A DNA stretch of 64,000 bases from a virus (IMGVR_UViG_3300031867_000002:128001-192000), one strand, 5' to 3'. Numbered from the stretch's first letter, positions 5,248 to 59,375 are shown. The notes: generated by a model not told the origin, from the sequence alone. A program made the numbers and translations.

Positions 5248-5343
5248 ATCAATGCTCCTTTGTCATGATAAAATCATGACTCCTTTCTTATTTGGTTTAC
5301 TTCAATGTTATCTATTCGTTAAAACAAAAAATAAGGAAAAATA

Positions 5344-5380
5344 AATGTCAGCGTACCCATAGAGTACGCTGACGCATTTT
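5344..5380 (-). terminator. terminator hairpin
   Basis: aatgtcagcgtac...gtacgctgacgcatt with A/T flanks. Confidence 0.7.
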
Positions 5381-5403
5381 CTTGATAACTTATAATGCCT
5401 GTC

Positions 5404-5841
5404 TTAGACAGTATATTTTACAATTACTTCATCATCATTGATAGTAGTTTCAATCTTATTAATTATTGGATTAGTAGCAATAAGCTCTTCTAAAGTAATT
5501 ACATGTTTACTTGTAGAAGATACATCGAAGTAATTCGCACATGCAATTCCGTCTGATGTATATAATTCCCACTTTGTATCATCTGCTAAAGAAGCAATAA
5601 TTTCTTTAAATCTAGCTTTATACACAGGAGCATTAATAATTACATGAGTATATGAATCAATACCATCATATGCTCCAGAAATAGATACTACATCACTTTC
5701 ATCAATAATAGACATCTCATTATTAGATGGGGTTATATGAGTAGACGAATCTAATGTATTAATATATACATTCTTATCAGAGTCAATAACATATAACCCT
5801 ACATTTTTATCAATAATACTATGAAGTTCTTTAAATTTCAT
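5404..5841 (-). CDS. hypothetical protein
   Basis: Start MKFKEL after AAAGGTGG. ORF track start is 5853. Confidence 0.65.
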   Translation of the reverse strand: MKFKELHSIIDKNVGLYVIDSDKNVYINTLDSSTHITPSNNEMSIIDESDVVSISGAYDGIDSYTHVIINAPVYKARFKEIIASLADDTKWELYTSDGIACANYFDVSSTSKHVITLEELIATNPIINKIETTINDDEVIVKYTV

Positions 5842-5945
5842 AATATCAACCACCTTTCTATAATTACTATAAAGTTGATATAAACAAAAAATAAGCCAGC
5901 GTTTAACTGGCTTATTTTTATATTGTGCTTATACAGCAGAATGAT

Positions 5946-6395
5946 TTATTTTTCGATATGCTTCTGTTTTTCATACCATGCATCATTTGGAATAATCCAG
6001 AGTGCAGGCACTTCAAAATCTCCCATAGGGTCAGAACCAATAAAGGTGACTTTGGATTGCATAAGTTCTTCTGAAGTCACTGTAATACCATTGGGTGTCT
6101 TATATACATTTTCCTCTAAACTATACTCAAGATGAGCATAGTATGAGTCATCGCTTTTAACCATATCTTCATCATCAAGATATACGTTAAATCCATTGGG
6201 CATGAGCTTAAAGAGACCAAACTCCTTGAGTTCCTTGTAAGCCTTACCTGTGTTTTGAACATTCTTATTAATATAATCATGATATCTATCATGATTACAA
6301 GTTCCAACTTTTGGAATCATGCATGTTGAGCAATCTCTTGTTGTGTTAATACATACTTCATTTCCGTTTACCATAGTAATATTGTTGTCTTTCAT
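5946..6395 (-). CDS. hypothetical early protein (Cys-containing N-terminus)
   Basis: AGGAGG RBS, early-type promoter near 6451-6462. Confidence 0.7.
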   Translation of the reverse strand: MKDNNITMVNGNEVCINTTRDCSTCMIPKVGTCNHDRYHDYINKNVQNTGKAYKELKEFGLFKLMPNGFNVYLDDEDMVKSDDSYYAHLEYSLEENVYKTPNGITVTSEELMQSKVTFIGSDPMGDFEVPALWIIPNDAWYEKQKHIEK

Positions 6396-6473
6396 TATAA
6401 AGACCTCCTAAAATAAAATATTTGTGATAGGAACTGGTCCTATCACAAATATAGTATACAATTAATAAACAAA

Positions 6474-7253
6474 TTACACACAATACATTAATGGCTGATT
6501 TTTATTTGCGGCTCCAACATATGCTTCTTTAAGTTCTCCGATATAGTCTTCTCTTCTTCCAGCCCAGTTTTCAAGGAAAGATAATTTAAGGTCTACTCCA
6601 GCAAACACTGTTTCAAGTCCATCATAGTGTTGTAAGTATGCTACTAAGAAAGATGCTACATCTGTAGTAGCAAGATTCTCAAATACACCCATCATTGTAC
6701 CAGGTATAGTCATTAGATTAGCTGGATGACATACAAATACATCTAATGGAATACTACCAAGACCACCAGTAATATCACCATGAGTAACACTTTGTAAACG
6801 AATCATATTAGGCTCTTTAAAGTCAACAAAGATTGTATTATTAAAGATAGATGTCATATCGGCACGAGCCTGAAGCAGCATTACGTCATCCATACTATAG
6901 TTATTATATGCCGACATATAATCATAGTAACCTATCCCGCTTTGCTGAGCTAAACCACCATCTTCTTGACCATAAGTAGTCCAGTCTATATCTTTTACAC
7001 CTAAGATATCTTGACCACCAACTAATGCGTTATCAATTATGAAGTATCCATCTTTCTTCTTAGATTTATCATTAGTATCAATCTTAATTCTCACCATATG
7101 AGGAAAGTAACGACTGAATGTAAGTAATGTATCTGGAATAATAGTCTCTTCAACCCACTTATCTTTAGAAATATCGTCAGGAAGCATTAATGGCTTCGTA
7201 CCTAAACGACGTTCAATTTTATTAAGTAGGAGATTCATTTTATTAATAGGCAT
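6474..7253 (-). CDS. virion structural protein, possibly neck/head-completion
   Basis: 259 aa, late-type promoter 7272-7283. IERRLG...TLLTFSRYFP resembles myophage neck-protein N-termini. Confidence 0.45.
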   Translation of the reverse strand: MPINKMNLLLNKIERRLGTKPLMLPDDISKDKWVEETIIPDTLLTFSRYFPHMVRIKIDTNDKSKKKDGYFIIDNALVGGQDILGVKDIDWTTYGQEDGGLAQQSGIGYYDYMSAYNNYSMDDVMLLQARADMTSIFNNTIFVDFKEPNMIRLQSVTHGDITGGLGSIPLDVFVCHPANLMTIPGTMMGVFENLATTDVASFLVAYLQHYDGLETVFAGVDLKLSFLENWAGRREDYIGELKEAYVGAANKNQPLMYCV

Positions 7254-7307
7254 ACCAATCTCCTCCTTTCTTATCTAAATGTTTTCGTATATAAAAAACA
7301 AGGCGGC

Positions 7308-7871: not shown

Positions 7872-7926
7872 AATAAGAGACCTCCTTATTTTATATTCTA
7901 CTATAATAATATATAAACGAAAGAAA

Positions 7927-7950
7927 TCCAGGTGACATATGTCACCTGGA
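7927..7950. terminator. perfect 24-bp palindrome / terminator
   Basis: TCCAGGTGACATATGTCACCTGGA just after the 7957 gene. Confidence 0.7.
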
Positions 7951-7956
7951 GATATA

Positions 7957-10210: not shown

Positions 10211-10227
10211 AGTTATTTCCTCCTTGA

Positions 10228-19436: not shown

Positions 19437-21242
19437 TTAGAACTCTGGATTAACAAACTTAACACTTTTATCTGGATGAATAGTAAGTTCATATAAGCAA
19501 AGAATATTTTCTTTTGAAATACCTCTTGTTGTAAAACCATTCATACCAAGAACTTGAATTTTTGCATTAGCTTGTTTCTCACATTCCTGATTAGCCTCAA
19601 TTGTGTATACTGGTTTAACAATTGCTGTATCACCGTCATAGTCCATACCCATAGCTTCAATAAGACCATTACTAATAGAAAGTGTATCTTCGAATACTGG
19701 AGATGTATTAGAGTTAATGTCAGTATCCTCAATAACAGGATACCATTTATATAATTTCATATTGTCTTCAAAATCAGATTGAATAACCATAGGCGCAGTT
19801 TTAACAGTAGACTTTATTCTAACTTTTGTAGGATACTGATTAAGATAGGAGTCAATTGGGAAACGAGTAATAAGACACATCTTATCTGATGTAACATCAC
19901 ATGCTGCCATATAGAATAAATCACACCATGTAATACGTCTATTTACTTTAAGAGTTTCTGAATAATCTTGTTTAGTCTCTTTATATTCTTCTGAATTATT
20001 AAGTTTATATCCAGTAAATCCCATCCAAAAATTTAAATTTTTCAAATCTTTAATTTCTTTACCAGAAATAGCTCCAACTATTTGATGATTCTTAGCACGT
20101 CTAGCAAACTCTTCTTTATCTACTGGAATTTCAATAGGAATAAAACGGTTGCTATAACCATGAATAAAACGTTCAATCTGTTTATCTATTTCTACATCAG
20201 AGAATGCAATCTGATAATCTACTAATGGCACCATGATAGATTCTTTTTCATTTATCATAATAGGATACTCTAGTTTACCAGCAAATCTATTCTCAAAGAA
20301 ACGTCTTAACCAGAATGATACAAATGGTTTAAAGCAACATAGTGCTGCAGCTAGTGGTAATGCACAGTGGTCCATGTCAATCATTAAATCATCTATATCT
20401 TCTCCACTTACATCGGGAGCAGACATTACCAAACGTGCACTATAATCTACTGTTTTATACATAGTACCACGTTTAATAAGACCCATTTTACCAGGTAAGT
20501 TAGCAGGTGTTTCTTTACCATTTATAGTAGTACCATTACCAAACCAATCAAAAATTTGTACTAAAATATTTTGTACTCTTGCTTTAGTAACGTCACTTAA
20601 TGTAAGTCCATATCCAGATGTTTCTTTAAGTGCTTTTGTAGCCATTATCAAACTACTATAGAGTTTGTTTATTTCTCCTACTCCAATACCAGCATCTCTA
20701 GTATCTACGTCTCTATAGTATGCTGGTATTACTACCCACTTATCTACCCACATCTTATTTTTTACTTTCTCAATAAAGTCAATTCTCTTATTTCTAGATG
20801 CAGAATCATTCTTCTTAAACTTAATCTTAGAGAAGTTTTTCTTTAACCAATCTATCCCAGTATCGCCATCATCACTTGGAACTAAATCACCTTTATCATC
20901 AATAATAAAATAATCTGTACCATTTACAATATCTGCAATCTTACCATTGAGTTTTAATAGTGTCTTATATACTAGTGGTTGTATAAATTGAGAACCTAAA
21001 TCTATATATGCATATATACCAGCACGTTCATTTTTTGTAATGCCAAATATTTCATTGCTTAATAATCCATCTTCTGTTGGTGTAGGACCATTAAAAAATA
21101 CTGGATTACTTACCTCTTTTAACAAGTTATTCTTAATAAACTTATCTATGTCTAATAACTCTGTTTTAAAGTGTTCAGTTGCAGCTTCAGTAAAATAATC
21201 AGTTTCATCCTTAGCAATATTAACAGCTTCATCTATAAGCAT
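19437..21242 (-). CDS. phage multisubunit RNA polymerase beta' N-terminal/catalytic subunit (probably virion RNAP)
   Basis: GLLSNEIFG, VIPAYYRD, KTVDYSARLV, TRFP, catalytic GMDYDGD. Start MLIDEA after AAGGAGG, late-type promoter. Confidence 0.9.
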   Translation of the reverse strand: MLIDEAVNIAKDETDYFTEAATEHFKTELLDIDKFIKNNLLKEVSNPVFFNGPTPTEDGLLSNEIFGITKNERAGIYAYIDLGSQFIQPLVYKTLLKLNGKIADIVNGTDYFIIDDKGDLVPSDDGDTGIDWLKKNFSKIKFKKNDSASRNKRIDFIEKVKNKMWVDKWVVIPAYYRDVDTRDAGIGVGEINKLYSSLIMATKALKETSGYGLTLSDVTKARVQNILVQIFDWFGNGTTINGKETPANLPGKMGLIKRGTMYKTVDYSARLVMSAPDVSGEDIDDLMIDMDHCALPLAAALCCFKPFVSFWLRRFFENRFAGKLEYPIMINEKESIMVPLVDYQIAFSDVEIDKQIERFIHGYSNRFIPIEIPVDKEEFARRAKNHQIVGAISGKEIKDLKNLNFWMGFTGYKLNNSEEYKETKQDYSETLKVNRRITWCDLFYMAACDVTSDKMCLITRFPIDSYLNQYPTKVRIKSTVKTAPMVIQSDFEDNMKLYKWYPVIEDTDINSNTSPVFEDTLSISNGLIEAMGMDYDGDTAIVKPVYTIEANQECEKQANAKIQVLGMNGFTTRGISKENILCLYELTIHPDKSVKFVNPEF

Positions 21243-21343
21243 TGTAATATACCTCCTTATTATCATATAATTATTATAAAGTTCCACCTATCCATTCTAA
21301 CAAAACATACATATAAAATTGATTATAAAGGAGGATATTCTAT

Positions 21344-21904
21344 ATGAAGAAGCCTGTTTATTACTATCAGAATGTACAGCATTTTGATGATTATAATTGT
21401 TGTCCTAGACCTTGTCCACCGCCTCATCCATGCCCTCCTCCTCACCATCATTGTCATCCACATTATCATGGCAAAGTTGGTATTGTAGGAAGAACAGTAT
21501 TATCTGTTCGCTATGTGGATTGTCATGGTCACGTACAGACATTTGATATTCATGAGAATGAAACTTATGAGATTAAAGCAGTTAGTCAGACTCGTGGAGT
21601 TTGTACTTTTGCTGCAAGAATCATTGATTTTGAATGCTCTAAGGGTATTGAAAAGCTCATTGATAAACCTCATATGATTGATGTAACTGCAATTATTGTA
21701 GATTACTCTGATGCATATGAAAGCAAGCTTCTTAGAATTGGTATTGAGAATATCATTTCTATTAAGCCAGTAAAGTGCTTTGATGGTATGATTCCTGATT
21801 TTGTACCTCAGTGTCCAGAACCAGTATCTCCACCTCATCATTGTGAATGTAGCCCATCTGGTTATGAAGAATATGTTATTAATGACCCGTTTGAGATGGG
21901 TTAA
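21344..21904 (+). CDS. Pro/Cys/His-rich late protein
   Basis: CCPRPCPPPHPCPPPHHHCHPH, AACA-N6-TA at 21304. Confidence 0.7.
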   Translation: MKKPVYYYQNVQHFDDYNCCPRPCPPPHPCPPPHHHCHPHYHGKVGIVGRTVLSVRYVDCHGHVQTFDIHENETYEIKAVSQTRGVCTFAARIIDFECSKGIEKLIDKPHMIDVTAIIVDYSDAYESKLLRIGIENIISIKPVKCFDGMIPDFVPQCPEPVSPPHHCECSPSGYEEYVINDPFEMG

Positions 21905-27782: not shown

Positions 27783-27783
27783 A

Positions 27784-28092
27784 TTATTCACCTCCTTTCA
27801 AAGCGGAAATTTTCATTATCCACTTATTTCCTTTCTTATTATATATATTTACATATACAACACCATTCTTCTCTAAATTTTCTCTCCCCTTTATTTCATT
27901 TTTATTTTCTCCGAAGAAAATAAGAATTGGTAAATTTGGATTTTCCGTGTAACCCATTACACAAAATCCCAATTCTTCCTTCTCCCCCCTTTCTAATGAT
28001 TCTTTAAACATAGCAGAATTAAACCTGCCAAGTTTAATAATTTTTTCATTGTTGTTCCCTGTTTTGATTTGATAAATTCTGCCATCTAACAT
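27784..28092 (-). CDS. hypothetical early protein
   Basis: GGAGG RBS, preceded by the repeated structured leader. Confidence 0.65.
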   Translation of the reverse strand: MLDGRIYQIKTGNNNEKIIKLGRFNSAMFKESLERGEKEELGFCVMGYTENPNLPILIFFGENKNEIKGRENLEKNGVVYVNIYNKKGNKWIMKISALKGGE

Positions 28093-28145: not shown

Positions 28146-28249
28146 TACACATTAATAATATATAAAAAAGAATGATAAGTTTAACAACCAACAATTTTTA
28201 TACCTTTAACATCCAAGTAATAAATTGATATAGATAGGAGGCGATATAC

Positions 28250-28972: not shown

Positions 28973-29080
28973 GAGTCGCAGATTTTTAACATAAAGATAA
29001 ATGGTCTAGTAGCCTCACATACTACTGGCTTTACACACACATTAATATATATAAAATTTTTTGATAAAGGAGGATAAAAC

Positions 29081-36144: not shown

Positions 36145-36223
36145 TTTGAATACCTCCTTTTATAATATTACTAAATTGTTGAAGAAGTAAAAGAAGAAGG
36201 GTCGGAACAAACCGACCCTTCAT

Positions 36224-38868: not shown

Positions 38869-38944
38869 GATATATGATTCCTCCATTTCTCTCAGCGTAC
38901 GTAATACGTAACCTGAGTCATTTATATAATTGTTTCTCTTAGTA

Positions 38945-39078: not shown

Positions 39079-39156
39079 TACTTAAATGTTAACATACCCT
39101 ATTAACCATTTATGAGAAAAACATCTTTATAAAATGCTCAAAAGGAGGAATTAATC

Positions 39157-40107
39157 ATGCAAAACTTTTTAGATATGAATGTTTTAGCTAGAGGAGCTAA
39201 CATTCCGCCAGAAGATAATAATCAAAATGATATTGTTCCAGTTGTACAAAATAGTGTTGAACCAGTTAAAAGAAAAAGAGGAAGACCTAGAAAATCCGAA
39301 CAACAACAAAATACAGAAACTACTGTAGTTCAAAGAGGTTCTACTTCCTCATCTGGTCTACCATTATGCCAAACTAATGACCCGTATGAAGATACTTATG
39401 AAGAAACTAATGATATGCTCAGACTATCTATTGCTCAATTAGATATCTTGGCTGGAGATGTAAAGGGAGAAATTGATAATATCAGAGGTTCTAAAACTCT
39501 TAAAGGTAAATATAAGTATATCTCTGATTTATGTGCTACAGCAAGTTCTCTTGTATCTTCTAAGATTTCTGCTATTAAAGAAATTAATTCTGTTAAGACT
39601 AAATGTCATGAACTTGAAATTAGAAGAATTAAAGATATTAAGTCTGCTGCAGCAAATCAGCAAGACGATGATAAATATATTGCAGACCTATATAATGCAT
39701 ATATTAATACACCTATTGGAGCTGGTCAACATCCAGCACTTCAATATACATCTTCTAATGTAGCTGGTAATATGAGTGCATTAATTGGAGGAGTTAATGC
39801 TTCTCCTACAAATGAAGAGCAGAACTTTAATAATTTTATGAATAATCTTACTCCAGAACAAAACCGTATGATTCTAGGAGATAATCCTAATATTGAAACT
39901 GTAATTGTCTATGACCCTAATACTGGTGATAAAATGTTTGATGTGGTTGATACTAGTACGGGTACTCCAGTTCCTAACTATCCAAGACCAGATAGAGGAT
40001 TGCTTGATGATACTAGTATTGATTTTGCTACAGGTATTGCTTCTAATACTAATATAGGACAATCTTGGAAAGTAGTTGTATTAGGAGACATGATAAATCA
40101 CTTCTAA
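39157..40107 (+). CDS. AT-hook-containing protein
   Basis: KRKRGRPRK plus coiled coil. Confidence 0.65.
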   Translation: MQNFLDMNVLARGANIPPEDNNQNDIVPVVQNSVEPVKRKRGRPRKSEQQQNTETTVVQRGSTSSSGLPLCQTNDPYEDTYEETNDMLRLSIAQLDILAGDVKGEIDNIRGSKTLKGKYKYISDLCATASSLVSSKISAIKEINSVKTKCHELEIRRIKDIKSAAANQQDDDKYIADLYNAYINTPIGAGQHPALQYTSSNVAGNMSALIGGVNASPTNEEQNFNNFMNNLTPEQNRMILGDNPNIETVIVYDPNTGDKMFDVVDTSTGTPVPNYPRPDRGLLDDTSIDFATGIASNTNIGQSWKVVVLGDMINHF

Positions 40108-41872: not shown

Positions 41873-41914
41873 GAACTTTTATATAAAATCACTTGTAAAG
41901 GAGGTCAATATAAT

Positions 41915-44518
41915 ATGAATCTTACTCATAAGGATATTATTGCTCGTCAACGCAATTTAATTACAGATACTTATGTATGTAATGCTTATTGTAATATTCC
42001 TCATTTATATGAAACTCTAACAAATGAGAATTATTCATATAATAAAGCTAAGATGCTATTGGAAAACTGGCAAGCTTTAGATAATGATGAAGAAAAAGCA
42101 TTATATAAAGTATTGGAAGTATTTGGATTGATTGTTGATAATGATAATAGTTCTAATATTCAAAATGCAGCTAGTTTAATTGAAGGAAAGATTATTCCTA
42201 AACTACGTAATGCTAAACAGACAAGACAATTAAACAATTATAAACGAGGTTGGATTAAACATAGACATACAGCTATGCTTAATGATACTAAAGATAATGA
42301 AACTGCGGTTCAAAGAGCAAAATCAAATGGAGGATATTTAGGAAACTCTTTACATCCTCATAGAAAATATAAACGTGATATTTATGGGCGTAAAATGGGA
42401 GAAGCAAAAGGTAATTCTAGTGGTGGAGATGAAATGTCAGATTCTGGTGGAGATGACTTCGCAGCAGAAGAATGTTATAATAGATTTATCAAGGCTGCCT
42501 CTATAAATGAGCAATGTGATAGAGTTCTAAACAATCATGCTAAACTATCTAAACGATTTGATTTAGAATCTAAAGTTCGTAGATGTCCTTTAAATGAATT
42601 ATCATTGCAAAAATGTATATATGATATATGTACTCTTATAGAAAGCTATGATATACCGTTTGGAGTTAAGTATAACATTGCTTTAGAGAATATTATGTAT
42701 CTAATGGTTAAGAATTGTATTCCTATAAGTAATTCATTTATTCTTGAAACTGTAACTGATTATTTTTTGATGGAAGAATCTACAGATGCTAGATTACATG
42801 ATATGAAGTATATTCTCGAAAATGCTAAATTTTTTACAGAAGAAGATATCGAACCTGTATCTTATCTATTGGTAGATGAAGGTGCTATTATTGAAGCATT
42901 AGAAAATGATGATTTAGAATCTCTTGAAGAAAATAAGATTCATGATATGTTCTTAAAGTGGAAAGAAAAGAGAGTTAAGACTAATAAAGAAAAAGATGAA
43001 GTTGATAAAATGAAAATCAAAAAGATTATTCATGACTTCAAGAAAGAGCACAAAAAAGATATCAATAAGTTTAAAGATGCTATTAGTAGAATCTTTATAC
43101 AAAGACCAGAAGCTATTATTCAAGAACTTCCAGATATTATGCAATTCGTAAGACTAGGTGTTGTATTAGGAGCTACTGCTATAAATCCTGTATTAGGTGT
43201 TATTACTCTTATTACAGACCTATTCTTAAAGATGAAGATATCTAGAGAGCAAATGGCTAAGGTTGTTGAGCAATATGCTAAAGAAAGAGACAAGTATAAA
43301 AAACTTGCAGATGAAGCAGAAGATGAAAAGAAAAAAGAGAAGTATACTGCATTATATAAACAATATAAGAAAGATACAGATACACTTGAGATGAAAGAGA
43401 ATGACCTATATACAGACGCAGAAAATGATAAGCGTATGGAAGAGAAATGGGCTAAAGAAGCTGAAGCATCTATGGGTGATGATGACTTTAATTTCGATTT
43501 TGATATGGACTTTGATTTTGAAGAGTCTGTTAAATATGTAGGTATGTTAGCTACACTATATGAACAATTAGACTTTACTAAAACAGAATTAATGTCTACT
43601 ATAAATAATAATATTCATAGTATGTCTAATGAAGATATTTATAATATTACAGAAGCTGTTAAGTTATGTAATGAAGTATTTGATTGTCCTCGTTATATTA
43701 ATATACTTGAAGATGAATTGCTTCGTTCTAGACAATCTAATTCACATCTTATTGCTGTTCAAAGAGCTGATACTATTAAGACATGTATAAATGATATAGA
43801 AAAGATTAAATACGATAATCTATTAGAGGGTACTTATGTAAATAATGATAACACGATTCCTCCAGTAGATATTATGTATGAACAACTCAAATGTAAACAT
43901 GATATCATGAATGATACATTAGAACTTGTTACCAGATATAAGAATTCAGCTATTAATGAATCTAAAGAAGGTTCTGGTATGTCATTTACTAGTAAACTTA
44001 AGATTGCTTCTGAAAATTTAAGACGTTCTGCACTTCATCTTAAAGATAAAGATAAACAATTATCTATGAAGTTAGACAGTGAATTGAATCGTGTTATGAA
44101 ATCTGCTAAGAAAGCTATGATTAGTGATAGTAGAGAGAATATTATTAAAGGTTCATTCCTACCATCTGCATCTAAATGTATTCATATTGCTCTTGCGTCT
44201 GGTGCGGCATATCTAATTAACCCAGTACTAGCAGTAATAGGTCTTATTGGATTTATAGGTTGTTCTAAAACAATTAACGAAAAAGAACGTAATCTAATTC
44301 TTGATGATATTGATATTGAGATTAAGATGTGTGATAAGTATCTTAAGATTGCAGAAGATAAAGAGGATTTAACTGCAGTAAGAGAAATCATGAAAACTAA
44401 ACGTGACCTTGAAAGACAACGCTCTAGAATTCTTTATAATAAGAATTATATATTTAAGAATAAGAAACAATATGATATGCCTGATAAGATTGGTAAAAAG
44501 ATGAGCGATGATGATTAA
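41915..44518 (+). CDS. large internal head/ejection-type protein
   Basis: 867 aa, two hydrophobic INPVL segments, coiled coils, upstream of the capsid gene. Confidence 0.5.
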   Translation: MNLTHKDIIARQRNLITDTYVCNAYCNIPHLYETLTNENYSYNKAKMLLENWQALDNDEEKALYKVLEVFGLIVDNDNSSNIQNAASLIEGKIIPKLRNAKQTRQLNNYKRGWIKHRHTAMLNDTKDNETAVQRAKSNGGYLGNSLHPHRKYKRDIYGRKMGEAKGNSSGGDEMSDSGGDDFAAEECYNRFIKAASINEQCDRVLNNHAKLSKRFDLESKVRRCPLNELSLQKCIYDICTLIESYDIPFGVKYNIALENIMYLMVKNCIPISNSFILETVTDYFLMEESTDARLHDMKYILENAKFFTEEDIEPVSYLLVDEGAIIEALENDDLESLEENKIHDMFLKWKEKRVKTNKEKDEVDKMKIKKIIHDFKKEHKKDINKFKDAISRIFIQRPEAIIQELPDIMQFVRLGVVLGATAINPVLGVITLITDLFLKMKISREQMAKVVEQYAKERDKYKKLADEAEDEKKKEKYTALYKQYKKDTDTLEMKENDLYTDAENDKRMEEKWAKEAEASMGDDDFNFDFDMDFDFEESVKYVGMLATLYEQLDFTKTELMSTINNNIHSMSNEDIYNITEAVKLCNEVFDCPRYINILEDELLRSRQSNSHLIAVQRADTIKTCINDIEKIKYDNLLEGTYVNNDNTIPPVDIMYEQLKCKHDIMNDTLELVTRYKNSAINESKEGSGMSFTSKLKIASENLRRSALHLKDKDKQLSMKLDSELNRVMKSAKKAMISDSRENIIKGSFLPSASKCIHIALASGAAYLINPVLAVIGLIGFIGCSKTINEKERNLILDDIDIEIKMCDKYLKIAEDKEDLTAVREIMKTKRDLERQRSRILYNKNYIFKNKKQYDMPDKIGKKMSDDD

Positions 44519-45588: not shown

Positions 45589-45600
45589 AACAATATAATA
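45589..45600 (+). promoter_or_regulatory. late promoter AACA-N6-TA (representative copy, capsid gene)
   Basis: AACA ATATAA TA. Same motif at more than 15 other gene starts (see findings). Confidence 0.75.
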
Positions 45601-45706: not shown

Positions 45707-47749
45707 ATGCCAGTAGTTGGTGAAACCCTCGTTCGCAAGCCTGGTTCAAATGGTTATTCCCATGACCCTATGGCTGGTATGGCGAAAGAGTTCCTGAACC
45801 TCTCCAATTCTATTTTGGAAGAAGGTAGACTTGACATTTATACTGAACCTTCTAAGGTTTTTAGAAGAGATATTACAGATTCCGCAATGAAGAGCTTCTT
45901 TATTGAAAATTCCGCAGACCCTAAGGGAATGACAGCAGAAGAATATGAAGACCACATTGCAATGATGGAACAGCTTTATGAAAATGATAAAAAAGCAGTT
46001 CTTGAACATTCTGGTATGGGTCAGTTTAACCCTGTAATTGGTATGACTTTCCCAATTCATAAGAATATCATGCTTAACAATATCTTTGATAAAGGTGCTA
46101 TTCCGAAGCTTGTTGCAACATCTCCTAATTTTACAGTATCAATGGAAACAAGATGGCTCATTGACCCTGAAACAAATGAGAAGATTGATATGTGGAGAGA
46201 ACAATATAAGATGACTGATGCAATCGAAAAGGCTGCACCTATGAAATCTCTTTATTTACCTCTTCCTGAAGCTGAGAATACTAACATTATCGAGACTCTA
46301 TTTGGTGTTCCTGCTGACCACAACACAAACCTTTCTATTGAGTCCTATATCTCTGGTCTCGTAGGTAGCAGAGTTGTATATCCTGGTCAGACAGTTAACC
46401 TGGTTGTTGAGCAGTCTGATGCATCTACCACACCCGCAACTGTTACATATGTAACCGTTAAGTATACTAATACTACTACTTCTGCTCACGTACTTCCTAC
46501 TCCTACTGGTGCTACTGCACCTGCTGACCTTGCAACTCAACTTCCTACTGTTGACGCTTCTGTAACTCAGACTGTTATCGGCACTGTATTTGACTGGAAG
46601 GGTAATTTCGTTCCTGCATATGGTACTTATGACCGTCAGATTTGTGAACAGTTCGCACTTCCTATGGTAACTTCTGTTGCTGCTGGTACTCTTGCTGATA
46701 CTTGGGCACTGACTGTTACTCTTGCAAACGGTTCTACTGTAGTTATCGACAATACTACTTCTGAAAATGCAATTCCTGGTCAGTACAGAACTGTTGGTTT
46801 CGTATCTGGTTTCTCTAAGGATAACAGATTTGGTCTTACAACTTCCAACACAAATGTACTAGGTGTTCTTCTTACATCTAGACTTGATACTTCTTCCGCT
46901 ATGCTCAAGACTCCTAGTGTTTCTTGGTCTATCAGAACAGACATTATTGAAATTCCTAATAGAATTCCGATTAATGTAACTATTTCTCCTGAAGAAGTTA
47001 AGGATATTGCAGCACTTTATCAGATTAACCAGCTTACTAAGGTTATGTCTCTGATGAAGATTTCTCTTGCTAACTATAAAGATGACCTGATTCGTAGATT
47101 CCTTGACGAATCCTTCCTCAATATGCCTGGTGATTGCAAGATTGCTAGACAGTTTGACTTTGCTCCATCTCAGAACTATGCACTCGACCCAATCGAGTGG
47201 AGATACAAGACATTTATGGATAGTCTTGATACTCATGCTACTCAGTTGCTGCACGTTCTGAATGACCCGAACGTTACATTCAATATCATTGGTCGTGATG
47301 ACCTGATTAGAAAGATTACTCCTACAGATTACACATATCAGTCTCCTTCTAGCATTGGTCCTGTAGAACTTGACTTTGTTAAGACTGTTGTTACATCTGA
47401 TAAGAGAACATATCAGTTCATTAGTTCTGATAAACTTCGTGATAGTAATAACCTGATGATTATTCTCTGTCCTAGAAACTCTGAACGTTTCATCTACAGA
47501 ATTTATGATTATCAAATGTATCTATCTAACGAAATCAGAAATATTACTAATCCAGCTCTTCCTGCAGTACATGCATTTGAAAGATGGATTGCTAAGGAAT
47601 ATCAGCCAGTTCAGGGACGTATCAGAATCCTGAATCCTACTGGTCTCCGCAACTATGGTACTGACTATAGCTATAACAATGACCCAACTGGTCGTGGTGA
47701 TGGTGTACGTAGTATCGGTAAGAATGATTTCGATATTGACGCTATCTAA
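45707..47749 (+). CDS. major capsid protein
   Basis: Start MPVVGE after AAAGGAGG, high-expression codon style, late promoter at 45589, own terminator. Confidence 0.8.
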   Translation: MPVVGETLVRKPGSNGYSHDPMAGMAKEFLNLSNSILEEGRLDIYTEPSKVFRRDITDSAMKSFFIENSADPKGMTAEEYEDHIAMMEQLYENDKKAVLEHSGMGQFNPVIGMTFPIHKNIMLNNIFDKGAIPKLVATSPNFTVSMETRWLIDPETNEKIDMWREQYKMTDAIEKAAPMKSLYLPLPEAENTNIIETLFGVPADHNTNLSIESYISGLVGSRVVYPGQTVNLVVEQSDASTTPATVTYVTVKYTNTTTSAHVLPTPTGATAPADLATQLPTVDASVTQTVIGTVFDWKGNFVPAYGTYDRQICEQFALPMVTSVAAGTLADTWALTVTLANGSTVVIDNTTSENAIPGQYRTVGFVSGFSKDNRFGLTTSNTNVLGVLLTSRLDTSSAMLKTPSVSWSIRTDIIEIPNRIPINVTISPEEVKDIAALYQINQLTKVMSLMKISLANYKDDLIRRFLDESFLNMPGDCKIARQFDFAPSQNYALDPIEWRYKTFMDSLDTHATQLLHVLNDPNVTFNIIGRDDLIRKITPTDYTYQSPSSIGPVELDFVKTVVTSDKRTYQFISSDKLRDSNNLMIILCPRNSERFIYRIYDYQMYLSNEIRNITNPALPAVHAFERWIAKEYQPVQGRIRILNPTGLRNYGTDYSYNNDPTGRGDGVRSIGKNDFDIDAI

Positions 47750-51457: not shown

Positions 51458-51469
51458 ATCGATTCCTCC

Positions 51470-52177
51470 TTAATCATCAAAGAATGCTGACTTGTTACTC
51501 TTATTAAACGTTCTACCGATACTACCTGATACAGTACTGTTATCTTTCAACGGTGCAGAATTAGCTTGGCCAGATGACGTAAAGTCTGTTCTATTAATAG
51601 GAGTATTCATCAACATCATAAACGATAATGATGTGTTTGCATAATTCAGCATATCAAAATTTTTTAGCACATAGTACATTCCTAGGAATGTACTATGTGA
51701 TATTTGAACTGGATTTGTAGTATTAAGATACAAGTCTATACATTTCATATCACCCATTTCTGTTTTTATTACACCTGGCATAAACTTAACTACTTTATCC
51801 ATTGGTAATCTCATATAAATGAATTCATCATAATTAACTACAGCAAGTGAATTATCCATGAAACCATATATTCCATAGTTATCACTTTCAATCCAGTTAA
51901 GTCTTATATGCTCAAAATATTTTAACAATTCAAACATGTGTTCAGGATAGATGTTAATTTTCTCTAATTTATCACGTCTATCCTCAAAGAACAGATAATA
52001 AGTTAATACACGCTTTATCATAGTATTACTTTCTGTCTTTCCATTTATCTTATACTCATTATAATTAGAGTAAGTTCTAGAACCATTATTATATGAAGCT
52101 GTTGTATGAAACATTAGTCTAACTTCATCAGATAACTGGTATACCATATCATTCATATAACAATAATCTGTTTGCAT
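51470..52177 (-). CDS. hypothetical protein, possibly ssDNA-binding/replication
   Basis: Next to the helicase, flexible tail ending AFFDD. Confidence 0.5.
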   Translation of the reverse strand: MQTDYCYMNDMVYQLSDEVRLMFHTTASYNNGSRTYSNYNEYKINGKTESNTMIKRVLTYYLFFEDRRDKLEKINIYPEHMFELLKYFEHIRLNWIESDNYGIYGFMDNSLAVVNYDEFIYMRLPMDKVVKFMPGVIKTEMGDMKCIDLYLNTTNPVQISHSTFLGMYYVLKNFDMLNYANTSLSFMMLMNTPINRTDFTSSGQANSAPLKDNSTVSGSIGRTFNKSNKSAFFDD

Positions 52178-52217
52178 CTATCTCACCACCTTTACTTAGT
52201 AGTTTTTCATTGTGTTA

Positions 52218-53777: not shown

Positions 53778-53827
53778 ATTATCACCTCACATAAAATTAG
53801 GAGCCCCACGTAGTAGGGCTCCATTGT

Positions 53828-56044
53828 TTAATCTCCCATATACTTAAATAAACCATCCATACTATCTTCAGAATTATTGACAACTGGTTCGTTATTAATA
53901 AACTTCTGAGGTTGTACCATATACATTAAGTCGTAAGGAGATGGCTTGTGTTTTCTGAAACTTAGAGGGCTATAAAGCATTCTAGCAATATTCTCGGATT
54001 GCATTGCAATCGTAATACTAGGATGTGTCATTACAGCTTTCTTAAGAGTAAGAATCTGATAATTAGTCTGATTAGGAACACTCCAATCAGGCATTTCAAT
54101 AATATCAGTCTTATCTCTAATCTGATTCATAATAATAATCTCTAAATGAACAGACATAATATGGTCTAATCCAATATTATTAAGTCTATCAGATAAAGCT
54201 TTAAGGAATGACTCAGCTGTATAAGAATCTGTATTAGCTTTAAGGTCAATAACTTTAATTACAGATTCAAGGCGTTCAGACATATCATCATTATGAATTC
54301 CTACATCGAATAACGGAGAATTATCATCTTCAAGTAATACAGATACAGGGATATCAATATCTTCATTATTATCTGCAAGATTCTTCAGTTCAATATAATC
54401 ATTAAGCCAATCTGTAAGATATAAGTTATCCATATTAGATGTCTTAATTGTTATAGTTTCATTAGAACCATGCTTTTGAAGATAGAATACATTGATATAA
54501 TTCATAGAATCTTCTATATTAAAGTCATCATTATCATCGTCATCGCCATCATCTAAAGATGCAATAACTTCTTCTTGAATATCTCCGTCTTTAATAATAA
54601 GATGCCATTTCTTGAAATCAGGAATATTAGGATTGATAAAGATAGTGCCTTCATCTATAATAATATACTTAGCAATTTCTTCTTCAGACATAATAGAAGT
54701 ATCAAAAGTTACACCATCAATCTTCGCCTCAAGAAGATGTTTAGCTGACAACATCATTTGAGTTAAGCGTTCTGTTAAGTTTGTAACGCTGTAAACACCA
54801 ATGTTAGTTGCTGGTACAATATTATAAAGTTCACCCATACATCTTCTACAGATACCTCTACCATTAGCTGCAGATAAACACTTAATTGGGGAACGTAGAT
54901 AAATTACTTTACCAATAAGGTCTTGATTTTCTTTTACTACTCTATATACATTACCAAGACGATGTTCAATTCCCATAGGGTCAATACGATACCATCTATC
55001 AGCAATTTTCTTAAGAGCAGTTTCATCTTCTACATAATATTCAAGAAAGTTACGAGTACCACAATCATATCCAGGGTCAATATTGTCTGAATAAGGTATT
55101 GTATACTTTCTTGTAGTAGCACAATTTAAAATCATAATTCTAGAGAAATGTCCTGAACGAGAAGTATTCTTCTTAGAAAGATTCTGTGCAATACGAGCAA
55201 TAAGAGATTCCAATATATGAAATGCTACATTATTTGCTCCTCCTGAGATATAAGATGTGTTTACAACATAAGGGAATACGCCGCCTTCACCATTAGGTTT
55301 AACTCCAATATTGATATACATCTCACGAGCCTGTTTAGGCTTAACACCTTCTTTAGCTCTAAATGCATCTGATAAGCAATGGTCTCTACCAATATATTGT
55401 TTAGCATTTACAATATAATCAATAAGACGATTCATATCATTAAGAGCTTCTTGATTCATTTGTTCTGGCGGAAATTGTGCATAGTAATTCTGATTATGTC
55501 TATCCATAATTTCTTTAAAACCAGGACAACTATAATACATAAGGATAAAGTCTTCCATATTGATACTATTATTAAAGTACCACGCAAATTTGTCTACAAA
55601 TTTCAAATCTCTTAAACTATCATAGATAGTTCGATTAAGATTATGAATAAGCATTCTATCTGCTGCATTATTAGAAGCTTGGTCTCTTACAGGCATAATA
55701 GCATATTTATCAATATAAGATTTGATATACGCATTTGTAATGCCTTTCTTGTTAAAGAACAAATGTTTAGGTTTAATTGTCTGATTAGTCTTTACAATAA
55801 AACCCCATACGATAATGTTAATAAGTGCATATGCTGGTGGAAGATTAACACTCATACCATTATCAAATATGAATGTTACCTTTGTTTTCTGGACTGTAGG
55901 ATTCTCAATATAATCCAGAAATACATCTTTCAAATCGTTTTGAAACTCATTAATAGTTTCTTGTGTGATATCTGCTGTTTTAATAACAACAGGTTGTCCA
56001 GTAATTAGTGGTGTAAAAACACCATAGTCATAAGTTGTAGTCAT
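53828..56044 (-). CDS. RNA polymerase beta' C-terminal subunit (probably non-virion RNAP)
   Basis: Bridge-helix-like KKNTSRSGHFSR, LRSPIKC...ICRRCMG Zn site, trigger-loop-like TQMMLSAKH, early promoter upstream. Confidence 0.88.
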   Translation of the reverse strand: MTTTYDYGVFTPLITGQPVVIKTADITQETINEFQNDLKDVFLDYIENPTVQKTKVTFIFDNGMSVNLPPAYALINIIVWGFIVKTNQTIKPKHLFFNKKGITNAYIKSYIDKYAIMPVRDQASNNAADRMLIHNLNRTIYDSLRDLKFVDKFAWYFNNSINMEDFILMYYSCPGFKEIMDRHNQNYYAQFPPEQMNQEALNDMNRLIDYIVNAKQYIGRDHCLSDAFRAKEGVKPKQAREMYINIGVKPNGEGGVFPYVVNTSYISGGANNVAFHILESLIARIAQNLSKKNTSRSGHFSRIMILNCATTRKYTIPYSDNIDPGYDCGTRNFLEYYVEDETALKKIADRWYRIDPMGIEHRLGNVYRVVKENQDLIGKVIYLRSPIKCLSAANGRGICRRCMGELYNIVPATNIGVYSVTNLTERLTQMMLSAKHLLEAKIDGVTFDTSIMSEEEIAKYIIIDEGTIFINPNIPDFKKWHLIIKDGDIQEEVIASLDDGDDDDNDDFNIEDSMNYINVFYLQKHGSNETITIKTSNMDNLYLTDWLNDYIELKNLADNNEDIDIPVSVLLEDDNSPLFDVGIHNDDMSERLESVIKVIDLKANTDSYTAESFLKALSDRLNNIGLDHIMSVHLEIIIMNQIRDKTDIIEMPDWSVPNQTNYQILTLKKAVMTHPSITIAMQSENIARMLYSPLSFRKHKPSPYDLMYMVQPQKFINNEPVVNNSEDSMDGLFKYMGD

Positions 56045-56235
56045 AGCTATACCTCCAATATATTGATTATTTGATAGTTTTTGACTATGTCATTCTCTAT
56101 CAATATAATAATATATCAATGAGAAAAAAGTTGCGGGTGAACTTAATCACCCGCATTTTGAGAAAGGAACCAATTATGATAGATAATATTATACCTAGTC
56201 ACGTCACCCTTTACATAACTATTATTCTTATGTTA

Positions 56236-56697
56236 TTAGTTTCTTGTCTTAGACATTTCTTTAGGCTGCATCTTTTTGACATTCTGATTACCTTTAATGC
56301 CTTGACCAGAAACATAAGCACGTTGTCCTTTACGAGCAGCCATCTGAGCTTTATTAGCATACTTCTTCTTAATAGCAGCAAGAAGCTTTCTTTCTACAAT
56401 ACGATTCTTAACAAGTTTCTTCCAAAGAGAATCGTTATTATCCTTAGCAAGCTGAAGTGCAGCCATACCAGTTCTACGAGTTAGGTCATCATTCTTATTA
56501 AGACGAACTAAAGTTTTTCTGCTAATCTTATTTGCTTCGAGAAGAACATCAGCTGTTTCAAGAAGTTCACGCTTGTCTTCATCAGAATCGGAATAGTGGT
56601 CATCATAGAAAAATGCTTCGAGAAGCTCATCCATATTAAGTTCCATTTCAACCTCACGTGCGGCATCAATGGTATTAGGATTTGTATAAAGTCCCAT
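56236..56697 (-). CDS. small basic late/head protein
   Basis: Acidic propeptide-like N-terminus with LLE-A sites, basic C-terminus, late promoter 56783-56794. Confidence 0.6.
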   Translation of the reverse strand: MGLYTNPNTIDAAREVEMELNMDELLEAFFYDDHYSDSDEDKRELLETADVLLEANKISRKTLVRLNKNDDLTRRTGMAALQLAKDNNDSLWKKLVKNRIVERKLLAAIKKKYANKAQMAARKGQRAYVSGQGIKGNQNVKKMQPKEMSKTRN

Positions 56698-56887
56698 GAG
56701 AATATCCTCCTTTTAAAATATAAAATATAATTGCAATTAGATTTTATTTGTATATGAGTAATCATACACTTAGGTCTTTCATTATATAATTGTTCTGTTT
56801 TTAAACTACGAATAACAAATTTATAATAGTCGACTATTAAACGTAATCATATGATAATGAGTAAGCTGATGAAAGGAAGTTATTATT

Positions 56888-58987
56888 ATGGCTGATATTA
56901 CACAAATGATTCAAAGTGAAACTTCTGATATTTATAGACAGGAAGTGCTTGAAGCTCTTAGATTAACTTTTCCAGGTTTATATGAACATGAACTTGTAGA
57001 AGCAATTAATTATTCTATTATGAAGCGAGGTAATGATACACCCGCTGTATTAGATAACAATTATACCAAAGCAAAAGAACAGACTACTTTATGGCAAGTA
57101 ACAGATTATATCATGAGTAGAGAGCCTATCATCACAGTAAGTGGTGTTATGTTTAAAAAGCATGGTTCTGTTCCTAACCCATTTGTAATGCTTATTCAGG
57201 AGTTTCTCAAACAAAGAGGATACTATAAAGACAAAATGTTTATGTATCCTAAGGGTAGTGAGAACTTCGAGAAATATAATATCTTACAATCATCAGAAAA
57301 GCAATCAGGTAATGCAATGTATGGTGCATCTGGTAATCATACTTCAATCTTCTATAATCTTTATGTTGCGCAGTCTATTACAATGCAAGGTAGAAGTTGT
57401 ATTGCTGCAGCAATTATGTTGTTTGAAGCTACAATGGCAAATAATGTTAAGTTCAGTAGTCTTAATGAAGTAATCACTTTTATCAATAACGTAAGAAGAG
57501 AACCTATGGGTATGTATCCAGACGACTTTATTATTGATAAAGATAAAGTACCAAATGTAGAAGAGGTATTCTTTAAGATTATTTATAGTAGTGGTTTCTA
57601 TTGGATTCCTACTGAAAAAGAAATGACTTTGATTTGGGATATCTTGAATCGTTGTACTCAGCATGAACTGAATAAGTTGTTCTATAAGAATAATCTGTTC
57701 TGGTTTGTAGATAATACAGTGGTTATAAATAAGATTATTCAGATTCTTTCTACACTTGATGTACCGTTTATTGACCCGAATAAACCACCTCAGGAAGTTA
57801 AGGATATGATGGATGAACTCTATCAGATGATTTATGAATGGGTATATTATGATAAACAGTATATGGATAGAATTGATAGAACAGAGAATATGTATCGTTG
57901 TGTATCTATGCTGACAGATACAGATAGCTGCTTTATTAGTTTTGATGGTTGGTATCGTTATATTCTCGATAAGACATTTAATATTCCTATGAAGATTAAA
58001 GAGATTGAGATTGATGAAAAGACCGCAGAAGTTAAACCAGCATTTGAAACAAGATACGATTATGACTTCTATAAAGATGAAGTTATTGAAATGCAGGATT
58101 ATGTACGTCCAGATGTAATTACACCTCAGGTAGGATTCCGTTGTTCTATTATTAATATCTTAGCTAGTATCATGGGAAAACTTGCTATTGATTATATGGG
58201 TAAGTATTCTGATAATAGTAATAGCACAACTTGTCATGATGGTTCTAAACGTAAGAGCTTCTTTATTCTTAAGAATGAATTCCAGCTTAAGCGTGCCTTG
58301 ATTACAGATGGAAAAAAGAATTATTGTGCATATCAAGAACGTCAAGAATCTAGTATTATTCCAAAAGAAAAAGCGCTTGCGATTACTGGTATGCCTATTA
58401 AGAAAGTTGGTGTTCCAGATAGTACTAAAGCAGCTCTTCAAAGAATTCTTATGGAAAATATTCTTGATAATCCAGGTCAGATTTCTCAAGTAGAGATTGT
58501 TAAACAACTTGCAATCCTTGAAAAACAAATTGTTCAAGCTATTCATGATGGTTCTAAAGAATACTTTAAACCAGAAAGAATCAAAGCTATAATGGCATAT
58601 GATAATCCTATGAGAGAATCTGGTATTAAAGCATCTGTAGTTTATAATGAACTTAAGGATGACAATGAAGAACCTATTGATTTAACAACAAGAAATAGCA
58701 TTCTTAATATTAAGATTGATATTAATAAAAAGAATGTAGAAACTCTTAAAGAAAAGTATCCTCATATATATGAGAAAGCTGTAGCACTTATGCAGAAAAA
58801 AGAATTTGTTAAGGGTATTACAGGTATTGCTATTCTTGAAGATAAAGTTGTTCCTGAGTGGGTTAAGGACTATATTGATTATACAACGATAGTAAACGAT
58901 AATCTTCATACGTTCCCATGTGAAGCTATAGGTATTGACAGAAGAGAAAAAGATGCTATTAACTATACTAACATTTTAAGATTATAA
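56888..58987 (+). CDS. family B DNA polymerase, C-terminal half (motifs B and C)
   Basis: EKQSGNAMYG, LTDTDS, KKNY. Confidence 0.9.
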   Translation: MADITQMIQSETSDIYRQEVLEALRLTFPGLYEHELVEAINYSIMKRGNDTPAVLDNNYTKAKEQTTLWQVTDYIMSREPIITVSGVMFKKHGSVPNPFVMLIQEFLKQRGYYKDKMFMYPKGSENFEKYNILQSSEKQSGNAMYGASGNHTSIFYNLYVAQSITMQGRSCIAAAIMLFEATMANNVKFSSLNEVITFINNVRREPMGMYPDDFIIDKDKVPNVEEVFFKIIYSSGFYWIPTEKEMTLIWDILNRCTQHELNKLFYKNNLFWFVDNTVVINKIIQILSTLDVPFIDPNKPPQEVKDMMDELYQMIYEWVYYDKQYMDRIDRTENMYRCVSMLTDTDSCFISFDGWYRYILDKTFNIPMKIKEIEIDEKTAEVKPAFETRYDYDFYKDEVIEMQDYVRPDVITPQVGFRCSIINILASIMGKLAIDYMGKYSDNSNSTTCHDGSKRKSFFILKNEFQLKRALITDGKKNYCAYQERQESSIIPKEKALAITGMPIKKVGVPDSTKAALQRILMENILDNPGQISQVEIVKQLAILEKQIVQAIHDGSKEYFKPERIKAIMAYDNPMRESGIKASVVYNELKDDNEEPIDLTTRNSILNIKIDINKKNVETLKEKYPHIYEKAVALMQKKEFVKGITGIAILEDKVVPEWVKDYIDYTTIVNDNLHTFPCEAIGIDRREKDAINYTNILRL

Positions 58988-59032
58988 AAAATAAACTAAA
59001 AATAAGGGCGCTCTCTGACAGCGCCCTTCTTT

Positions 59033-59224
59033 TTATTTGATATTGTACTTTTCTTTGAGTGTGGGAATTGCTTCCTCACATTCTTTCTTTGTTCCAGCAA
59101 AGACTATTTTCACATAATGATTTTCTTGCTGGGAATAAACAGTTGTTCCACAATCAGAAACCCCATAAGTAATTCTCAAGCTTCTAATTGTTCCGTACAG
59201 TGCAATATATACTCCATATAACAT
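59033..59224 (-). CDS. small hypothetical early protein
   Basis: GGAGG RBS, preceded by the repeated leader. Confidence 0.65.
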   Translation of the reverse strand: MLYGVYIALYGTIRSLRITYGVSDCGTTVYSQQENHYVKIVFAGTKKECEEAIPTLKEKYNIK

Positions 59225-59231
59225 AATATGT

Positions 59232-59274
59232 CCTCCAGAGGTCGTGGACTTTATAATCGTATACGATAACCTCT
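59232..59274 (-). promoter_or_regulatory. conserved structured leader, copy 2
   Basis: AGAGGUU-AUCGU(AU)ACGAU-UAUAAAGUCCACGACCUCU-GGAGG. Confidence 0.75.
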
Positions 59275-59375
59275 ATTCTACCTAAATAATATATAAGTAT
59301 CATAGTTAACTTTTACAATCACTACATTCTGACCAGCTCAACATATACATAATTAAGCTTGAAAGGAGGAATCGT

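Follow-up and report, generated by a model that had tools for sequence, protein, structure and literature searches.

A probable AR9-type late promoter, AAC(A/T)-N6-TA, in an uncultured jumbo phage whose DNA probably contains thymine

The uncultured jumbo phage represented by the virus record IMGVR_UViG_3300031867_000002 carries, before many of its genes, the motif AAC(A/T)-N6-TA, in which N6 denotes six unspecified nucleotides (nt). We studied this motif in a 64,000 nt stretch of the record (bases 128001-192000, hereafter the window) and in the genome as a whole. We propose that it is the late promoter of a non-virion RNA polymerase made by the phage and directed by a homologue of gp226, the promoter-specificity subunit of Bacillus phage AR9, and that this system is run on DNA that probably contains thymine. 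To this explanation as a whole we assign a probability of roughly two in three. The record, of 224,632 bp (31.7% G+C), carries direct terminal repeats and has a completeness rating of 100%. Among its genes are those for a multisubunit RNA polymerase and a family-B DNA polymerase, both split, as well as for an anaerobic ribonucleotide reductase, a portal protein and a major capsid protein. The nearest cultured relatives by RNA polymerase beta' (tblastn, approximately 27-33% identity) are the AR9/PBS1 group, the Staphylococcus S6-like phages, Listeria phage LPJP1 and Yersinia phage phiR1-37, and comparison of the window genes with cultured phages by megablast and blastn gave no matches. A total of 192 genes were called with a simple caller of open reading frames and Shine-Dalgarno sequences. 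Many of the genes downstream of the motif had no match in PHROG and Pfam searches. Coordinates below are those of the window unless given as genome positions.

A preliminary description of the window had listed 16 AACA-N6-TA sites, nine on the plus and seven on the minus strand, as well as AACT variants before the genes that start at 11811, 41915, 21242, 5841 and 52177. All 16 proved to be exact matches, and all five variants were located, 15-29 nt before the start codons. The enrichment proposed as a check is absent from the bulk count, as the bare 12-mer occurs 71 times in the window versus 82.8 ± 8.7 times in shuffled sequence, and is present in the placement of the motif. Read to the letter, the refuting condition given in that description would thus apply. 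The signal of the motif lies in its position and orientation only. Specifically, when the zone from -62 to -12 relative to the start codon is considered genome-wide, AACA-N6-TA is found in the sense orientation before 42 genes and AACT-N6-TA before 29, versus a single antisense occurrence of each, where about four each are expected from genome density (71 sense versus 2 antisense; binomial p = 6e-19). In the window alone, the motif is found in sense before 18 of 57 genes and in antisense before none of the 57. Near-background counts were obtained for every other single change to the six fixed bases and for the spacings N5 and N7. AACA-N6-TA took first place when the 4096 x 7 possible XXXX-Nn-YY patterns (n = 3-9) were ranked without bias.

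The extended consensus is AAC(A/T)-N5-R-TAA, with an A following TA in 93-97% of sites, and the motif lies a median of 25-28 nt from the start codon. There is an excess of intrinsic terminators (23 versus 5.6), which often abut the motif on its upstream side, as does the terminator at 16520-16545 before the site at 16559. The genes that follow AAC(A/T) sites encode virion proteins, portal, capsid, head protease, endolysin, terminase, replication proteins and dCTP deaminase. A bulk count below the shuffle expectation (71 versus 82.8) is what chance matches in AT-rich DNA could produce. However, dinucleotide-preserving shuffles of the upstream segments gave 14.9 ± 3.9 genes with the motif and a maximum of 28 in 500 shuffles, compared with 70 observed. 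Together with the strand asymmetry and the conservation of the motif across genomes, these shuffles refute a chance origin, to which we attach a negligible probability.

The motif corresponds to a promoter that has been characterized by experiment. In AR9, 94 mapped late transcription starts carry AACA-N6-T(A/G), the last base of which is the start point (PMC5312081), and gp226 acts with the beta-N subunit to read the complementary template strand, in which deoxyuridine is strictly required at -11/-10 (PMC9209446). As a positive control, the zone test was applied to 50 kb of AR9, where it recovered AACA in 20 sense and 2 antisense positions.

The machinery that reads such promoters appears to be encoded in full. 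The gene at 12647..14227 (+) was identified by blastp, profile and AlphaFold/Foldseek comparisons as encoding a gp226-like promoter-specificity (sigma-like) subunit of 526 amino acids (aa). Its product is 22% identical to AR9 gp226 over 451 aa by blastp (E 3.5e-14). A single-sequence phmmer search of the PDB with this protein returned no match, and a family profile (A1) was needed, which matched 7S01_A with an E value of 2.7e-25 over residues 8-460 of 464. An AlphaFold model of the protein, with a predicted local distance difference test (pLDDT) value of 83, gave 7S01_A (E 5e-15) and 7UM0_A as the top Foldseek matches, followed by gp68 of phiKZ (E 4e-6). Residue W251 aligns with AR9 W208, the tryptophan of the 2.1bis helix, is invariant in 64 of 65 sequences, and lies in a short helix (248-255) of the model. 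Directly upstream is a gp227-like gene at 11811..12590 (+) (blastp to AR9 gp227, E 3e-23; phrog_20045), and this gene order is common to AR9, BpSp, phiR1-37 and Machias.

All four split subunits of the non-virion core are also encoded, one in the window and three elsewhere in the genome. The gene at 53828..56044 (-) specifies a core subunit (phmmer to PDB 7S00_D, E 4.4e-22; phrog_3015) that would correspond to the beta' C-terminal subunit, AR9 gp154. The others are beta-N at genome 27495-29216 (7S00_c, E 3e-34), beta-C at genome 33234-35480 (AR9 gp089, E 2.5e-87) and beta'-N at genome 82924-84570 (7S00_d, E 3e-38). Of the residues that form the pocket in AR9 beta-N (gp105), K375 maps to Lys and R363 to Asn, within a stretch of low identity. 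A second RNA polymerase beta'-like gene, at 19437..21242 (-), was recognized by phrog_2986 (E 8e-85) and by tblastn to beta' genes of AR9-like phages. Its product has no match to the solved non-virion enzyme and is probably a subunit of the virion RNA polymerase. Separately, a 1,745-aa RNA polymerase beta-like protein is encoded behind an AACA site at genome 16734-21971 (-) (phrog_3148, E 3e-135); it greatly exceeds the other split subunits in size and is possibly a fused subunit of the virion polymerase.

Identification of the motif as an AR9-type late promoter is well supported, because motif, spacing and position all match, the gp226-like subunit and four core subunits are encoded, and the AR9 control recovers the motif. 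On this point the preliminary description was borne out by the motif statistics, the conservation described below and the encoded machinery. We consider it highly probable, from these sequence comparisons, that AAC(A/T)-N6-TA is the late promoter of this phage and is read by the phage polymerase. By analogy with AR9, the holoenzyme would read the template strand at approximately -11 to -8, where it is complementary to AACW, and transcription would start at the terminal A of the motif. The resulting leaders would mostly be 20-35 nt long and carry a Shine-Dalgarno sequence. About 70 transcription units would be served, including those for portal, major capsid and other virion proteins, endolysin, DNA polymerases, and the phage's own dCTP deaminase and ThyX, so that roughly one-third of the phage genes would be switched on by this promoter and the phage-made RNA polymerase.

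We also considered whether the motif might instead be a -10-like element for a host sigma factor, or a leader signal that acts at the RNA level. Its AT-rich 3′ part, TAAWA, looks like a -10 box, and the motif is always situated in the transcribed leader region near a Shine-Dalgarno sequence. However, no -35-like information is present upstream of AACA, and full sigma-70-like sites are not enriched (116 versus 118). In addition, most of the motif would remain untranscribed if the AR9 start point holds, the motif is that of the experimentally mapped AR9 late promoter, and its cognate factor is encoded by the phage. A host or leader signal is therefore very improbable.

Comparison with relatives further argues for the promoter assignment. 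The gp226-like protein has 358 relatives in a large protein collection and 132 loci in IMG/VR. In 80 relative loci that were fetched, AACA-N6-TA occurs 232 times in sense versus 15 in antisense, and AACT-N6-TA 118 times versus 39. The motif stays in place before orthologous genes while its flanks diverge, down to 33% protein identity. When orthologues were compared with the whole relative G002, 53 had the motif in both genomes, 63 lacked it in both and 12 were discordant (Fisher p = 1e-22). The corresponding numbers for a second whole relative, G007, were 33, 35 and 17 (p = 2e-8). The sites with long leaders, at 28988, 38923, 39079, 45589, 56783 and 56814, are all kept in relatives, and these members of the preliminary list are thereby rescued.

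At motif position 4 this phage accepts T about as readily as A (A before 42 genes and T before 29), which is new relative to AR9, where 50 kb contain 20 AACA and one AACT. The AACA and AACT sites agree in spacing, in distance to the start codon and in the TAA end, where position 13 is A in 93% and 97%, respectively. Relaxation of position 4 fits the structure of the AR9 complex, in which the -8 template base exposes its C5 to solvent and is under less constraint than the other three (PMC9209446). Alternatively, AACA and AACT could belong to two distinct promoter classes, such as late and middle ones, that differ in strength, timing or reading factor. AR9 is indeed nearly AACA-only, and orthologous promoters usually agree in base 4 (in 48 of 51 cases for G002 and 22 of 31 for G007; p = 0.02 versus random). 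AACT sites also lean towards genes of DNA and RNA metabolism, with eight metabolic and two structural genes compared with 8 and 12 for AACA, and are followed by T-rich bases that yield AACTTt. Nevertheless, this division by gene function is weak (one-sided p = 0.045) and changes with the class assigned to the virion polymerase genes. Moreover, the two forms share spacing, TAA end and start-codon distance, and A/T switches do occur between orthologous sites (3 of 51 in G002 and 9 of 31 in G007). We therefore regard two classes as unlikely, and treat AAC(A/T)-N6-TA as a single promoter below.

The strict requirement of the AR9 enzyme for deoxyuridine raises the issue of which base the DNA of the present phage contains. 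The preliminary description had offered two branches, a uracil-DNA lineage or the same motif read in thymine DNA. Outside the window, at genome 10644-11807 (-), lies a gene for a 387-aa thymidylate synthase of the ThyX type, recognized by Pfam (118 bits) and by the NCBIfam equivalog model TIGR02170 (98.6 versus a cut-off of 87.9). Alignment with Thermotoga ThyX shows that RHR, Ser-x-Arg-Tyr, R..LP and LR.D.HAQ.E are kept, and the motifs GHESILEH, RHR..S.RY, R..LP and LR.D.HAQ.E are still present in relatives with a ThyX of only 41% identity. The gene follows, in an operon, a gene with an AACT site. A dCTP deaminase gene at genome 6107-6658 stands behind an AACA site and scores 107.8 against TIGR02274, whose equivalog cut-off is 92.8.

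These genes set the phage and its relatives apart from cultured uracil phages. Among 42 large relatives, 36 encode ThyX and four of the remaining six encode ThyA, so that 40 of 42 have a thymidylate synthase, whereas searches for ThyX, ThyA and DCD in AR9, LPJP1, S6, phiR1-37 and BpSp found none in any of the five (for thymidylate synthase, Fisher p = 1.4e-5, although the relatives are not phylogenetically independent). Conversely, dCMP deaminase is present in all five uracil phages and was not found in the complete genome of this phage. Genome searches for uracil-DNA glycosylase (UDG), both dUTPase families, MazG, thymidylate kinase and ThyA were all negative. A homologue of AR9 Ugi was also not found, which is uninformative, because uracil phages outside Bacillus lack Ugi as well (PMC10303552).

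A second line of evidence concerns the residue that excludes thymine in AR9. Val206 of gp226 lies 3.9 Å from C5 of the -10 uracil, the V206G substitution abolishes the preference for uracil, and the valine is reported to be absolutely conserved in homologues from uracil phages (PMC9209446). In our alignment, this column is indeed V in the four cultured uracil phages included (AR9, BpSp, phiR1-37 and Machias). The gp226-like protein of the window has Ile249 rather than valine at this position. Across the uncultured clade the column holds I (11 sequences), V (10), G (9), K (7), T (7), D (4) and others, immediately next to the invariant tryptophan. Even close relatives with the same promoters and 61-90% identity differ here, having I, K or T. 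No link was seen between the residue in this column and the presence or absence of ThyX, apart from the record G011.

Several observations weigh against the proposed explanation or favour the alternative in which the phage has uracil DNA as in AR9, its polymerase requires template deoxyuridine at -11/-10, and ThyX serves another purpose or is inactive during infection. The phage shares its promoter and gp226-like factor with AR9, and Ile249 is beta-branched like valine and, on the AR9 geometry, could clash with a C5 methyl group, excluding it much as Val206 does. Homologues of all six AR9 proteins listed as exclusive to uracil-DNA phages (PMC10303552), namely gp212, gp218, gp227, gp242, gp260 and gp261, were matched here with E values of 4e-11 to 6e-32. 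In 50,697 cultured phage records, gp226-like matches occur only in known or presumed uracil phages. The genome searches found neither dUTPase nor UDG nor thymidylate kinase. A monofunctional dCTP deaminase would raise dUTP, and with dUTPase lacking the dCTP deaminase could supply dUTP. The ThyX protein also has an insertion, estimated at roughly 120 aa, between the N-terminal GHESILEH and RHR motifs; the frames that contain the gene in relatives span 293 to 580 codons, and the solved ThyX chains that were matched are 217-270 aa long. Finally, the gp226-like operon has only an AACT-type motif and no early-type motif (see below) in its orientation, which does not account for the first expression of the factor; AR9 gp226 has early promoters (PMC5312081).

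Nevertheless, uracil DNA appears quite unlikely, even more so than two promoter classes. It has to accommodate a ThyX that scores above the equivalog cut-off, whose catalytic motifs have survived divergence and whose gene belongs to an operon with an AACT-type promoter in front. It must also account for a thymidylate synthase in 40 of 42 large relatives compared with 0 of 5 uracil phages, for the missing dCMP deaminase that all five share, and for an unconstrained V206 column among close relatives with the same promoters. We read the six 'exclusive' proteins and the gp226-type factor as markers of a lineage rather than of uracil. Provided that the motif is a late promoter as proposed, the DNA probably contains thymine. 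This is the most likely arrangement because the phage would make dTMP by way of dCTP deaminase and ThyX, and because the thymine-excluding residue is unconstrained in the clade. The uracil-DNA lineage of the preliminary description is thus not supported, given ThyX, dCTP deaminase, the absence of dCMP deaminase and the lack of a conserved uracil-selecting valine. Its other branch, thymine DNA, is the more likely, although sequence proves neither. Of the genes named there as diagnostic, thyA, dUTPase and Ugi were not found and dCTP deaminase was, but a thymidylate synthase is not absent, as ThyX is present.

One IMG/VR record, G011 (locus L025; 200,990 bases, rated complete), is the sole complete relative without ThyX, ThyA and DCD. 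It has dCMP deaminase, like the five cultured uracil phages, and its gp226-like protein reads V-I-W at this site exactly as in AR9. G011 is a candidate for a genuine uracil-DNA phage among the uncultured relatives.

The individual sites in the window differ in how widely they are kept. Predicted late promoters of the AACA type precede several virion genes. The site at 16559..16570 (+), directly after the terminator noted above, serves the virion protein gene 16598-17788 (phrog_3013) and is kept before 42 of 60 orthologues, at protein identities as low as 33%. That at 7272..7283 (-), before the virion protein gene 6474-7253 (phrog_18911, virion structural), is kept in 11 of 17 orthologous upstream regions, and that at 17787..17798 (+), before gene 17822-18307, in nine of nine. 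The site at 10687..10698 (-) precedes gene 10228-10662, a weak match to the AR9 baseplate wedge protein gp232, and is kept as AACA or AACT in 17 of 24 such regions. The sites at 28208..28219 (+) and 36169..36180 (-) lie before the virion protein gene 28250-28972 (phrog_2926; AR9 gp125 homologue) and the portal gene 33841-36144 (AR9 gp128, E 1e-43), respectively. The major capsid gene 45707-47749 (ATG at 45707) has its site at 45589..45600 (+), and both the site and the 106 nt leader are kept in G002 and G007.

Other predicted AACA promoters, often with longer leaders, are likewise retained in these two relatives. They include 28988..28999 (+), with an 81 nt leader before gene 29081-32590 (site and long leader kept in both); 39120..39131 (+), before gene 39157-40107; and 56783..56794 (-), with an 85 nt leader before gene 56236-56697. 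The family-B DNA polymerase gene 36832-38868 has two sites in tandem, at 38923..38934 (-), with a 54 nt leader, and at 39079..39090 (-). Both are kept in G002 and G007, the latter as judged by eye from the reverse complement of the relatives' upstream sequences. The second DNA polymerase gene, 56888-58987, has its site at 56814..56825 (+), with a 62 nt leader, and this is kept in G002. The two halves of the split polymerase thus lie approximately 18 kb apart on opposite strands (- and +), each behind AACA promoters. The site at 59340..59351 (+) precedes a gene for a giant protein, a single open reading frame of 5,647 aa that runs from 59376 past the end of the window (genome 187376-204319).

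Less widely kept is the AACA site at 21304..21315 (+), before gene 21344-21904, which is found in the two closest relatives only. The site at 5298..5309 (-) lies 50 nt before gene 4702-5247, with a terminator-like hairpin (5373-5347) just upstream; the one orthologue found (L004) is without the motif, so that conservation gives this site no support. Beyond the earlier list, AACA sites were found at 11744..11755 (-) and 32578-32589 (+), and AACT sites at 2319-2330 (-) and 56068-56079 (-). Matches at 44466 (+) and 51530 (-) fall inside genes, the former is not kept in a relative, and both are probably chance matches.

The AACT variants precede an HNH endonuclease gene, 1660-2292 (2319..2330, -); gene 5404-5841 (5865..5876, -), where a terminator-like hairpin (5919-5887) lies just upstream; the RNA polymerase beta'-like gene 19437-21242 (21272..21283, -), where relatives have AACA at the orthologous site; gene 41915-44518 (41874..41885, +); and gene 51470-52177 (52193..52204, -; kept in G002). 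The non-virion RNA polymerase subunit gene 53828-56044 has an AACT site at 56068..56079 (-), just downstream of an early-type motif, and at this position G002 has AACT and G007 AACA. The gp227-like/gp226-like operon is preceded by the AACT-type site AACTTAACTATA at 11770..11781 (+), in which the N6 segment is unusually conserved among relatives.

A second promoter class resembles the early promoters of AR9, whose consensus AAATATATATTAT-N6-G (PMC5312081) is matched in its core by TATATTAT-N6-G here. This motif has 34 sites in the genome, 25 of them within the 7.5% of the DNA that is intergenic. Its consensus is TaTATATTATtAt.gTG, and a fuller form of the class is TGTAAAA-N14-17-TATATTAT-N6-G(TGATAG). 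In the window, such motifs occupy 11724..11738 (-), before gene 10750-11673; 28148..28162 (-), before gene 27784-28092; and 56101..56115 (-), before the RNA polymerase subunit gene 53828-56044. One copy also precedes the non-virion beta-C gene. Early-type sites were further noted on the minus strand at 7913 and 59293, in addition to those at 11738, 28162 and 56115, with about 20 more genome-wide, and a common leader, GTGAATAGTAGAGGTCAGACAATGC, comes after several of the copies (genome 64758, 94147 and 208192). The early promoters would presumably be read by the injected virion RNA polymerase. The early-type motif at 11724 adjoins the AACA site at 11744, which lies 70 nt before the same gene and is kept as AAC[AT] in close relatives, and the pair is a possible dual promoter. 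The gene that follows, 10750-11673 (-), encodes a MYG1-family (UPF0160) protein (75 bits).

Other genes were recorded in passing. The anaerobic ribonucleotide reductase gene (NrdD) at 2536-4473, which suggests an anaerobic habitat for the phage, lies beside the HNH endonuclease gene 1660-2292 (-). A second HNH endonuclease gene is found at genome 79571-80275. Both HNH genes stand behind an AAC(A/T) site, and their products may be homing endonucleases. A 957-aa protein encoded at 21940-24813 (+) contains BspA-type leucine-rich repeats (PF13306, 726 bits).

Taken beyond a single genome, the data incline us towards the view that reading of the template strand by gp226-type factors is not tied to uracil DNA, and that a large uncultured clade related to AR9, with no fewer than 358 protein clusters and 132 IMG/VR loci, runs this late promoter on thymine DNA, with A or T at -8 and varied residues at the V206 position. 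In the literature searched, we found no report of gp226 homologues in thymine-DNA phages. If this view is correct, the dependence of AR9 on uracil would be a derived specialization, added late, and the proteins regarded as exclusive to uracil phages would mark a lineage and not a base. Nature would also have sampled many substitutions at the thymine-excluding residue already. The AR9-type system has been linked to uracil DNA in the literature consulted and described as a way to avoid transcribing host DNA (Fraser 2022, PMC9209446; 2026 review, PMC13282480); on thymine DNA, a promoter that specifies only six bases would have to gain specificity in some other way. For uncultured jumbo phages, the presence of gp226 or of the promoter would be an insufficient sign of uracil DNA, and a rule based on gene content, absence of thymidylate synthase together with presence of dCMP deaminase, may serve to call it. 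The sites described here also provide a ready promoter map for annotation of this widespread clade.

Compared with AR9 and PBS1 (PMC5312081, PMC9209446; PDB 7S00, 7S01, 7UM0 and 7UM1), the present phage has late promoters with the same tetranucleotide, N6 spacing and TA end, placed alike before late (virion and lysis) genes and genes needed continuously. It also shares a homologous five-subunit enzyme, the gene order gp227-like, gp226-like with a primase nearby, and the same early motif. AR9 has a partial polymerase gene too, which may be compared with the split family-B DNA polymerase here. Unlike AR9, this phage accepts T at position 4 (29 versus 42 genes; 1 versus 20 in 50 kb of AR9), has a gp226 homologue of only 22% identity with Ile in place of Val206, a position that varies across the clade, and encodes ThyX and dCTP deaminase but not dCMP deaminase or Ugi, with DNA that probably contains thymine. 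Phages phiR1-37, Staphylococcus S6/Machias, LPJP1 and BpSp resemble it in the gp226-like/gp227-like pair, the split virion and non-virion RNA polymerases and the six proteins of PMC10303552. However, the uracil phages tested have no thymidylate synthase and do have dCMP deaminase, the reverse of the situation here, and beta' identity is only about 27-33%. Phage phiKZ differs in its late promoters, which are TATG at the start site (PMC7598289), in the need for gp68 in core assembly, and in belonging to phages that build a nucleus-like shell. Nevertheless, its non-virion RNA polymerase with gp68 (PDB 8QUE, 7OGP) is a homologous split enzyme, has a structurally related fifth subunit (Foldseek E 4e-6) and works on thymine DNA.

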